From the NCBI RefSeq assembly GCF_050920415.1, contig NZ_CP169309.1: a DNA stretch of 64,000 nt; one strand, written 5' to 3'. The stretch comes from Escherichia coli. Lineage in GTDB: Bacteria > Pseudomonadota > Gammaproteobacteria > Enterobacterales > Enterobacteriaceae. Numbering within the stretch: position 1 is the first letter of the stretch; each line of letters opens with the position of its first letter. Made by a program: the position numbers and the translations under genes. Of this stretch, positions 7,246 through 59,877 are shown piece after piece. The notes beneath the pieces were generated by a model, which was not told the DNA's origin, did no database searches, and worked only from the letters and a program-made list of their open reading frames with translations.

Positions 7246-7303
7246 AAATAATGCCGGGCTTAAACCCGGCACCCAACTTGTCGACGAAGTGCGTTTTGTT
7301 CAT

Positions 7304-7401
7304 GCCGGATGCGGCGTGAACGCCTTATCCGGCCTACAAGATCGTGCAAATTCAATATATTGCATGAGCCATGTAGGCCTGATAAGCGTAGCGCATCAGG
7401 C
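7304..7401. repeat. BIME: inverted pair of REP elements, flanked by two copies of a ccgggcttaaacccgg hairpin (7253-7270 and 7426-7449)
   Basis: gccggatgcggcgtgaacgccttatccggcctac and inverted gtaggcctgataagcgtagcgcatcaggc; typical REP consensus. Confidence 0.85.
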
Positions 7402-7453
7402 AGTTTTGCGTTTGCCAGCACTTTTAATTCCGGGCTTAAACCCGGAATTAAGA

Positions 7454-8788
7454 TCACTCTTCTGTCGTTTGCGGTGGTACGCCTGTTCCGCTTGGTTTGC
7501 GTCGCTTACCAATATTTTTGGTATCGCGATGGCGTTTTTTCACCCGTGGCTTCTCTTTCTCTTTAGCCTTTTTCTTCTCGGCGCGTTTTGCCAGTACTTT
7601 CTTCGATGGCTTGCCGGTCTGCTTCTCGCTTGGCGCACGCGTTTTCGGGCGTAACTCATCAATTACGCGAGCTTTAATTGGCTCTTCAATATAACGGCCT
7701 ACTTTGCCCAGCAGCAGATGGTCATGAGCTTCAACCAGTGAAATCGCGGTTCCCTTACGACCAGCGCGAGCAGTACGTCCGATACGGTGTAAATAAGTAT
7801 CGCCACTGCGTGGCATATCGAAGTTAAAGACATGGCTGACATCCGGAATGTCGATACCGCGCGCGGCAACATCAGTGGCAACCAGTACGTTAACGCGACC
7901 TTCGGTCAGACGCTTGATCGCTTCGTTACGCTTGCCTTGTACCATCTCACCTTCGAGATAGCAGTTGTTGATGCCCGCTTCGCGCAGCCAGTTTGCCAAC
8001 TCATGCACACGCTCACGCTTACGCACAAATACAATTGAGCGGGTCGCTTCCGGTTGTTTTAACAGATGCACCAGTAATGCGGTTTTATGTTCCAGGTCAT
8101 CAGCGCGGTAATACCACTGATGAATCTTTTTGCGCTCACGGGTGGATGGATTCGCAGAAACTTCCACCGGATCTTCAAGCAGACGCTCGGCAAAATCCTG
8201 AATGGCATCGCCTTCAAGCGTTGCCGAGAAGAACAGAGTCTGTTTACGCCAGCGCGTTTCGCCCGCAATATGTTCGATATCCTGAGCAAAACCCATATCC
8301 AGCATTCGGTCTGCTTCGTCGAGGATCAGCGTTTCAACCGCGCGGCAATCGAAGTTCTCTTCTTTTATGTATTGCAGCAGACGTCCGGTCGTGGCAACCA
8401 CGATATCCTGGTTTTCGCTGAATACTTCCGCGTGGTTCATATAGGCTACGCCGCCGGTGATGGTGGCGATATCCAGATGCGTATGTTTCGCCAGTTCGCG
8501 GGCATGATCGGCCACCTGCATCGCCAATTCGCGAGTCGGGGTGAGGATCAAAATACGCGGCGGACCGGATTTCTTACGGGGAAAATCGAGCAGGTGCTGC
8601 AACGCTGGCAGCAGATACGCCGCCGTTTTACCGGTGCCTGTCGGCGCAGAACCGAGTACATCACGGCCATCGAGCGCAGGCGGAATGGCGGCAGCCTGAA
8701 TGGCGGTCGGGCGAGTGAAACCTTTATCCTGGAGGGCTTCCAGCAGGCTTTCGTCGAGTTCAAGTTCGGAAAAAGTCGTTACAGTCAT
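7454..8788 (-). CDS. srmB: DEAD-box ATP-dependent RNA helicase SrmB
   Basis: 444-aa ORF with GTGKT (Walker A), DEAD, SAT and [10 protein letters not shown] motifs and K/R-rich C-terminal tail. Confidence 0.95.
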
Positions 8789-23781: not shown

Positions 23782-25882
<2,101 letters not shown>

Positions 25883-30603: not shown

Positions 30604-32031
30604 TTGAAACGCTGGCCCGTTTTTCCCCGCTCATTACGACAACTGGTAATGCTGGCATTTTTGCTGATTCTGCTACCCCTGTTGGTGCTGGCATGGCAAG
30701 CCTGGCAAAGCCTGAATGCGCTTAGCGATCAGGCGGCGCTGGTTAACCGCACTACGCTTATTGATGCCCGGCGCAGTGAAGCGATGACCAACGCGGCGCT
30801 GGAGATGGAGCGTAGCTACCGTCAGTATTGCGTGCTGGATGACCCAACCCTGGCGAAGGTTTATCAAAGCCAGCGCAAGCGTTATAGCGAAATGCTCGAT
30901 GCCCACGCAGGCGTACTGCCGGACGATAAACTATACCAGGCATTGCGTCAGGACTTGAACAATCTGGCTCAACTTCAGTGTAACAACAGCGGTCCCGATG
31001 CTGCCGCCGCCGCGCGTCTGGAAGCTTTTGCCAGCGCCAATACCGAAATGGTACAGGCCACGCGCACAGTGGTGTTCTCTCGCGGACAGCAGCTTCAGCG
31101 TGAAATCGCCGAACGTGGGCAATATTTTGGTTGGCAATCGCTGGTGTTATTTCTGGTAAGTCTGGTGATGGTGCTGCTCTTCACGCGGATGATTATCGGC
31201 CCGGTGAAAAATATTGAACGGATGATCAACCGTCTGGGGGAAGGGCGTTCTCTGGGCAATAGCGTTTCGTTCAGTGGACCGAGTGAGTTACGCTCGGTTG
31301 GGCAACGTATTCTTTGGTTAAGTGAGCGCCTGTCATGGCTGGAATCCCAGCGCCATCAATTCTTAAGACATTTATCTCATGAATTAAAAACCCCGCTGGC
31401 GAGTATGCGAGAGGGCACTGAATTACTGGCTGACCAGGTTGTCGGGCCGCTTACGCCCGAGCAAAAAGAGGTGGTGAGCATCCTTGATAGCAGCAGCCGC
31501 AATTTGCAAAAACTGATCGAACAACTGCTTGATTACAACCGTAAACAGGCGGACGGTGCAGTGGAACTGGAGAGTGTAGAGTTAGCACCGCTGGTGGAAA
31601 TGGTGGTTTCTGCTCATAGCCTGCCCGCACGGGCTAAAATGATGCATACCGACGTCGATCTCAAAGCAACTGCTTGCCTGGCGGAGCCAATGCTGCTGAT
31701 GAGCGTACTGGATAATCTTTACTCCAATGCGGTGCACTACGGGGCTGAATCCGGTAACATTTGCCTTCGCAGCAGTTTACATGGCGCGCGGGTTTATATT
31801 GATGTCATCAATACGGGCACACCCATTCCGCAAGAGGAACGCGCCATGATCTTCGAACCCTTTTTTCAGGGAAGCCACCAGCGAAAAGGGGCGGTGAAGG
31901 GCAGCGGTCTGGGATTAAGCATTGCCAGGGATTGTATTCGCCGTATGCAGGGGGAACTGCATCTGGTCGACGAGAGCGGGCAAGAGGTTTGCTTCCGCAT
32001 TGAATTACCGTCGTCGAAAAACACGAAATAA
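30604..32031 (+). CDS. glrK: Sensor histidine kinase GlrK (QseE)
   Basis: ORF 30541..32031; start set at in-frame TTG 30604 (475 aa, clear of the glmY terminator); TM segment, HAMP and H-box (LSHELKTPL). Confidence 0.8.
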   Translation: MKRWPVFPRSLRQLVMLAFLLILLPLLVLAWQAWQSLNALSDQAALVNRTTLIDARRSEAMTNAALEMERSYRQYCVLDDPTLAKVYQSQRKRYSEMLDAHAGVLPDDKLYQALRQDLNNLAQLQCNNSGPDAAAAARLEAFASANTEMVQATRTVVFSRGQQLQREIAERGQYFGWQSLVLFLVSLVMVLLFTRMIIGPVKNIERMINRLGEGRSLGNSVSFSGPSELRSVGQRILWLSERLSWLESQRHQFLRHLSHELKTPLASMREGTELLADQVVGPLTPEQKEVVSILDSSSRNLQKLIEQLLDYNRKQADGAVELESVELAPLVEMVVSAHSLPARAKMMHTDVDLKATACLAEPMLLMSVLDNLYSNAVHYGAESGNICLRSSLHGARVYIDVINTGTPIPQEERAMIFEPFFQGSHQRKGAVKGSGLGLSIARDCIRRMQGELHLVDESGQEVCFRIELPSSKNTK

Positions 32032-36193: not shown

Positions 36194-37447
36194 ATGTTAA
36201 AGCGTGAAATGAACATTGCCGATTATGATGCCGAACTGTGGCAGGCTATGGAGCAGGAAAAAGTACGTCAGGAAGAGCACATCGAACTGATCGCCTCCGA
36301 AAACTACACCAGCCCGCGCGTAATGCAGGCGCAGGGTTCTCAGCTGACCAACAAATATGCTGAAGGTTATCCGGGCAAACGCTACTACGGCGGTTGCGAG
36401 TATGTTGATATCGTTGAACAACTGGCGATCGATCGCGCGAAAGAACTGTTCGGCGCTGACTACGCTAACGTCCAGCCGCACTCCGGCTCCCAGGCGAACT
36501 TTGCGGTCTACACCGCGCTGCTGGAACCCGGCGACACCGTTCTGGGTATGAACCTGGCGCATGGCGGTCACCTGACTCACGGTTCTCCGGTTAACTTCTC
36601 CGGTAAACTGTACAACATCGTTCCTTACGGTATCGATGCTACCGGTCATATCGACTACGCCGATCTGGAAAAACAAGCCAAAGAACACAAGCCGAAAATG
36701 ATCATCGGTGGCTTCTCTGCATATTCCGGCGTGGTTGACTGGGCGAAAATGCGTGAAATCGCTGACAGCATCGGTGCTTACCTGTTCGTTGATATGGCGC
36801 ACGTTGCGGGACTGGTCGCTGCTGGCGTCTACCCGAACCCGGTTCCTCATGCTCACGTAGTGACTACCACCACTCACAAAACCCTGGCGGGTCCGCGCGG
36901 CGGCCTGATCCTGGCGAAAGGCGGTAGCGAAGAACTGTACAAAAAACTGAACTCTGCCGTTTTCCCTGGTGGTCAGGGCGGCCCGTTGATGCACGTAATC
37001 GCTGGTAAAGCGGTTGCTCTGAAAGAAGCGATGGAACCTGAGTTCAAAACTTACCAACAGCAGGTCGCGAAAAACGCTAAAGCGATGGTAGAAGTATTCC
37101 TGGAGCGCGGTTACAAAGTGGTTTCCGGCGGTACTGATAACCACCTGTTCCTGGTTGATCTGGTTGATAAAAACCTGACCGGTAAAGAAGCTGACGCCGC
37201 TTTGGGCCGTGCTAACATCACCGTTAACAAAAACAGCGTACCGAACGATCCGAAGAGCCCGTTTGTAACCTCCGGTATTCGCGTGGGTACTCCGGCGATT
37301 ACACGTCGTGGCTTTAAAGAAGCCGAAGCGAAAGAACTGGCTGGCTGGATGTGTGACGTGCTGGACAGCATCAATGATGAAGCCGTTATCGAGAGCATCA
37401 AAGGTAAAGTTCTCGATATCTGCGCACGTTACCCGGTTTACGCATAA
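36194..37447 (+). CDS. glyA: Serine hydroxymethyltransferase
   Basis: 417 aa from ATG 36194 ([22 protein letters not shown]...), PLP-lysine motif TTTTHKTL. Confidence 0.97.
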
Positions 37448-37486
37448 GCGAAACGGTGATTTGCTGACAATGTGCTCGTTGTTCAT

Positions 37487-37584
37487 GCCGGATGCGGCGT
37501 GAACGCCTTATCCGGCCTACAAATTATTGCAAATTCAAGATATTGCAATCTCCGTGTAGGCCTGATAAGCGTAGCGCATCAGGC
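37487..37584. repeat. BIME: inverted pair of REP elements downstream of glyA, followed by bidirectional terminator hairpin (~37605-37628)
   Basis: gccggatgcggcgtgaacgccttatccggcctac ... gtaggcctgataagcgtagcgcatcaggc, nearly identical to the BIME at 7304-7401; caaggcttcc-ttag-ggaagccttg hairpin. Confidence 0.85.
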
Positions 37585-37644
37585 AATTTTTCGTTTGTGA
37601 TCATCAAGGCTTCCTTAGGGAAGCCTTGTTACGTTATCGTGCCA

Positions 37645-59388: not shown

Positions 59389-59877
59389 ATGAGACTGACA
59401 TCTAAAGGGCGCTATGCCGTGACCGCAATGCTTGACGTTGCGCTCAACTCTGAAGCGGGCCCGGTACCGTTGGCTGATATTTCCGAACGTCAGGGAATTT
59501 CCCTTTCTTATCTGGAACAACTGTTTTCCCGTCTGCGTAAAAATGGTCTGGTTTCCAGCGTACGCGGGCCAGGCGGTGGTTATCTGTTAGGCAAAGATGC
59601 CAGCAGCATCGCCGTTGGCGAAGTAATTAGCGCCGTTGATGAATCTGTAGATGCTACCCGTTGTCAGGGTAAAGGCGGCTGCCAGGGGGGCGATAAATGC
59701 CTGACCCACGCGCTGTGGCGTGATTTGAGCGACCGCCTTACCGGTTTTCTCAACAACATTACTTTAGGCGAACTGGTTAATAACCAGGAAGTGCTGGATG
59801 TATCTGGTCGTCAGCATACTCACGACGCGCCACGCACCCGCACACAAGACGCGATCGACGTTAAGTTACGCGCTTAA
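59389..59877 (+). CDS. iscR: Fe-S cluster biogenesis transcriptional regulator IscR
   Basis: 162-aa [23 protein letters not shown]..., Rrf2 HTH and C92/C98/C104 cluster ligands. Confidence 0.97.

Follow-up and report, generated by a model that had tools for sequence, protein, structure and literature searches.

Serine at codon 401 of glyA in an Escherichia genome: very probably a natural, lineage-restricted polymorphism from cryptic clade I

In the 64,000-nucleotide stretch of DNA analysed here, hereafter the window, the glyA gene for serine hydroxymethyltransferase (SHMT) has a serine codon at position 401, where an earlier note had expected arginine from Escherichia coli K-12. The locus raises the question of whether this codon reflects an error or an artificial change, a peculiarity of K-12, a substitution that modifies the enzyme, or natural variation of the lineage from which the DNA derives.

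The glyA open reading frame extends over 36194..37447 on the plus strand and encodes 417 amino acids plus stop. Strain MFDS1022581 has the same glyA sequence (100% identity), and the ATG start at 36194 agrees with the RefSeq annotation of the gene there. Counted from this start (36194 + 1200), codon 401 occupies 37394..37396 on the plus strand, inside the coding region of a C-terminal α-helix comprising residues 396–412 (37379..37429, plus strand), as delimited by AlphaFold2/DSSP and alignment. The window reads AGC (Ser) at this codon and K-12 (strains ER1709 and MG1655) reads CGC (Arg), which corresponds to a single-base change from C to A at nt 1201 and to the loss of a charge at GlyA residue 401. 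The K-12 C-terminus given in the note, ...AVIERIKGKV..., was correct, as evident from the K-12 sequence and from the crystallised E. coli SHMT chains in PDB entries 1DFO, 1EQB and 3G8M, which likewise have Arg401. The claim of a Ser codon in place of the K-12 Arg was, thus, borne out by the alignment, with the reference glyA, checked for a serine at this position, encoding arginine.

Two further features are located at the gene. Opposite glyA, the list of open reading frames contains a 429-aa antisense frame (36197–37486, minus strand), which is taken as a shadow ORF of glyA, itself a highly expressed gene. Between glyA and yphH lies an intergenic palindromic repeat (37450..37590, no strand assigned), which we take to be composed of REP/BIME-like palindromic units and which is context and not part of the variant; a copy with approximately 90% identity is present at 7296–7414 of the window, between yfiE and srmB.

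The encoded protein was readily recognised as SHMT. The profile NCBIfam NF000586 matched it with 678.2 bits at a cut-off of 335, covering profile positions 1–404 of 404, PF00464 is listed for the exact Ser401 protein, and comparison with PDB 1DFO_A gave an E-value of 1.2e-283 over residues 1–417. The PLP-binding Lys229 as well as the catalytic and substrate-binding residues H126, D200, H228, R235 and R363 are all present, and the last 50 residues are those of 1DFO except for position 401.

Over 1,254 bases, the window glyA differs from the K-12 gene at 33 nucleotides (2.6% DNA divergence), 32 of which are synonymous, so that R401S, caused by C1201A, is the sole amino acid difference between the two proteins (416 of 417 residues identical). 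The predominance of synonymous differences implies a long natural divergence under purifying selection and not random or engineered point changes.

The divergence extends beyond glyA. Over 40 kb, identity between the window and K-12 was 95.36%; in 32 intact genes, 4.53% of the bases and 1.53% of the codons differed from K-12, yielding 170 replacements that include tadA L16M and glnB T72I. At 1.53%, approximately 6 replacements are expected for a gene of 417 codons; with 1 observed in GlyA, this replacement would represent no more than chance for this strain. When 5,426 complete genomes labelled "E. coli" were searched with a 24-kb query, 18 genomes scored 97.6–100%, and all others scored 95.7% or less. 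EC42405 and 2013C-4282 were among those 18; both are named by Okuno et al. 2023 (PMC10100065) as completely sequenced strains of Escherichia cryptic clade I. The same paper regards clade I as sister to E. coli sensu stricto at the rank of a subspecies, its genomes usually being deposited as E. coli. Genome-level criteria for membership are a whole-genome ANI of >95% to E. coli, a distinct sister clade and a C-I-specific PCR marker gene. Judged by its sequence, the window can be placed in an Escherichia cryptic clade I strain near-identical to MFDS1022581, the clade I assignment being made from the 64-kb window and referring to this locus. The earlier note had proposed, with low confidence, either a strain other than the reference or point changes scattered over the sequence, and the former stands, in the specific form of a cryptic clade I strain approximately 4.5% away from K-12. 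Since the differences of the window from K-12 all reflect the clade I background, they are not to be read singly as mutations.

MFDS1022581 is a food isolate from South Korea, and its corresponding region (NZ_CP169399.1, about 1295011–1359011) differs from the window by 3 SNPs and 1 single-base deletion in 64 kb. At window position 8233, srmB has TTC (Phe) as its codon 186, and MFDS1022581 has CTC (Leu) there. At 31533, codon 310 of qseE is GAT (Asp) in both the window and K-12 and GAG (Glu) in MFDS1022581, which implies that the change is private to the latter. The SNP at 59808, in iscR (nt 420), is synonymous between the two strains. The deletion affects mltF (24327–25882, minus strand), where the loss of 1 bp at ~25333 splits the gene into the open reading frames 24327–25319 and 25319–25882; the site reads gagCtttttt in the window and gagCCtttttt in MFDS1022581 and is situated beside a T6 run. 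The gene is intact, at 1,557 bp, in K-12 and MFDS1022581, and a 35-base probe across the deletion matched 0 of the 5,426 complete E. coli genomes, so that mltF may be either a private pseudogene or the product of an assembly/indel error.

The distribution of the alleles at codon 401 was determined with probes of 35 bases, in which each 28-base seed word covers the variant base. With 81- and 62-base queries, a synonymous SNP close by, at nt 1224, confounded the counts. The AGC 35-mer was found in 2 of the 5,426 complete E. coli genomes and the CGC 35-mer in 5,151 (at least 95%), with approximately 273 genomes being assigned to neither probe, presumably due to another nearby SNP. Outside this set of complete genomes, the Ser401 allele is well represented. 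The exact protein corresponds to RefSeq WP_000919162.1, annotated in MFDS1022581 and N96; it is found on 109 contigs of a large protein collection (NCBI, ENA, Logan and UniRef entries), and 169 index blocks encode it, among them AP025751.1, AEXD01000017.1, GCA_015278885.1, GCA_015511755.1 and GCA_018706865.1. Over glyA with its 3-kb flanks (7.25 kb), the window DNA is identical to AP025751.1, AEXD01000017.1 and GCA_015278885.1, and the same identity of gene and flanks was seen with MFDS1022581. Ser401 GlyA is an already catalogued natural variant and not a new one.

These counts bear on the reading of AGC as a sequencing or assembly error, or as an engineered or planted change, in a gene that otherwise encodes Arg. 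It could draw on the scarcity of the AGC probe among the complete RefSeq genomes and on the mltF deletion, a second change in the window that is absent from complete genomes and indicates that private changes or errors do exist here. The same codon and an identical protein were, however, recovered from at least 7 independent assemblies produced in different laboratories and countries, besides the contigs counted above, and with the identical allele in so many independent assemblies, an error or planted change at codon 401 is hardly credible and was rejected. For the same reason, and in view of the synonymous nature of 32 of the 33 glyA differences, the part of the earlier note that spoke of scattered point changes was not upheld.

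Arginine is the dominant residue at this position, being present in 114 of 120 E. coli/Shigella GlyA sequence variants (the best 120 matches listed). The codon is multi-allelic in E. coli, with Ser on 109 + 4 contigs next to the dominant Arg; among the E. coli GlyA variants in the matches listed, Cys401 alleles occur on at least 15 contigs and His401 alleles on at least 23 + 1 contigs. The codons for Ser, Cys and His are each one base step from CGC (variants P0003, P0013 and P0014).

Comparison with further members of the clade revealed the direction of the change. Seven other clade I genomes have CGC at codon 401 in all seven cases, and in five of the seven, the protein is identical to K-12 GlyA; those five genes carry approximately 30 synonymous differences from K-12. 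We conclude from this that Arg401 is ancestral and Ser401 derived, and both the polarity and the distribution of Ser401 can be read directly from the genomes compared. The converse reading, according to which Arg401 is a laboratory peculiarity of K-12 and Ser the wild-type residue, could appeal to nothing beyond the general fact that K-12 has some private mutations. It is contradicted by the prevalence of the CGC probe in the complete genomes and of Arg in the listed variants, as well as by the Arg found in the clade I relatives and in PDB 3gbx, a 96% identical homologue with Arg at column 401. A K-12-specific Arg401 was, therefore, ruled out on the basis of this prevalence, and we give the reading no credence.

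Ser401 resides on two glyA haplotypes that are 6 synonymous sites apart (nt 366, 918, 1009, 1032, 1110 and 1224), the genes of N96 (L002) and GCA_015511755.1 (L006) differing from the window glyA at those 6 sites. With two haplotypes, more than one origin of Ser401 is conceivable, and either intragenic recombination or recurrent mutation could explain the pattern. A separate observation concerns LR-28 (L017), whose glyA is intermediate: it departs from the K-12 gene at 18 positions and from the window gene at 27, with some sites having the base typical of clade I and others that of K-12. The sequence suggests a mosaic or recombinant allele.

To what extent the substitution would matter for the enzyme was judged from the model and from family alignments. 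The AlphaFold2 model of the Ser401 protein has a mean pLDDT of 96.4, and DSSP assigns residue 401 to the helix spanning 396–412; the model speaks for the helix and has no say on the effect of a point substitution. Conservation across the family was taken from a search of representatives, the best 120 homologues all being near-identical E. coli/Shigella variants. In the resulting SHMT alignment of 77 diverse representatives, column 401 was occupied by R (16), E (11), A (9), K (6), S (5) and others, and H126, D200, K229, R235 and R363 were nearly invariant. Along the helix, the hydrophobic columns at 399, 402, 406, 409 and 413 of GlyA are conserved and column 401 is variable; the PDB homologue 5vmb has Asp there. 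GlyA position 401 is, on these grounds, probably weakly constrained and exposed. Given that column 401 varies widely among SHMTs and that Cys and His alleles exist in E. coli, the effect of R401S is most likely neutral or nearly neutral; we infer a lack of functional effect, with the Ser401 enzyme most likely working as the SHMT of K-12.

The opposing view is that R401S is adaptive or function-modifying, acting on stability, subunit interaction or regulation, and was selected in a clade I sub-lineage. It would be in keeping with R401S being the lone amino acid change in a protein that is otherwise the same in clade I and K-12 despite the approximately 30 synonymous differences, with the Ser, Cys and His alternatives at this codon in E. 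coli, and with the two Ser401 haplotypes, which could mean recurrence. Several alleles at one codon are, however, equally expected at an unconstrained site, and intragenic recombination can account for both haplotypes. Moreover, column 401 is among the most variable of the C-terminal helix, Ser occurs naturally there in other SHMTs, and residue 401 is distant in sequence from the catalytic residues, all of which are unchanged. A literature search found no paper tying R401 of E. coli SHMT to function. We regard an adaptive or function-modifying role as quite improbable. Its more specific form, in which R401S, possibly together with the Cys and His alleles, would adjust the stability of SHMT or the packing of its subunits via the C-terminal helix and would have been favoured by selection in a clade I sub-lineage, perhaps repeatedly, is to be considered very improbable.

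Taken together, R401S is, with high confidence, a natural, lineage-restricted missense polymorphism from cryptic clade I, in which Arg is ancestral and the enzyme most likely functions as in K-12. According to this natural-polymorphism reading, the change from CGC to AGC would have arisen within a clade I sub-lineage with Arg401 as the starting state and would have been stably inherited there. With glyA otherwise conserved, the Ser401 SHMT would perform the PLP-dependent interconversion of serine and glycine with tetrahydrofolate as in K-12. The rarity of Ser401 among the complete genomes (2 of 5,426) is expected because the variant is confined to a rare lineage; it would also be compatible with a change that is mildly deleterious. 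In itself, Ser401 is of little importance, being a known variant at a variable, probably exposed site in a housekeeping enzyme; it serves as a flag for the clade I background of the window and could, as a SNP, mark a clade I sub-lineage.

Among known SHMTs, the mammalian enzymes invite a comparison by residue number. Arg-401/402 of mammalian SHMT presumably corresponds to Arg363 of E. coli. Arg363 is invariant in the SHMT alignment and unchanged in the window GlyA, and alignments with eukaryotic and mammalian SHMTs stop at query residue 385–386, residue 401 of the E. coli enzyme lying beyond this point. In sheep cytosolic SHMT, Arg-401 is reported to bind the substrate carboxylate (Jagath et al. 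1997, Biochem J 327:877, cited in PMC7820547); it shares the residue number and the enzyme family with E. coli residue 401, and a link between R401S and the published SHMT "Arg-401" was rejected as a coincidence of numbering with the mammalian cytosolic enzyme. The window GlyA resembles K-12 GlyA (WP_000919159.1; PDB 1DFO, 1EQB and 3G8M) in its length, its Pfam and NCBIfam assignment and its hmpA-glyA-yphH neighbourhood, with the catalytic and PLP-binding residues all being the same, and it differs from it in having Ser401 instead of Arg401, with the further 32 differences between the genes being synonymous. To WP_000919162.1 (UniRef A0A0L7ANQ8_ECOLX), the window GlyA is identical as a protein. 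At the level of the lineage, the window is approximately 4.4–4.6% distant from mainstream E. coli, as fits the subspecies-level sister lineage of PMC10100065, and it groups with the clade I strains named there.
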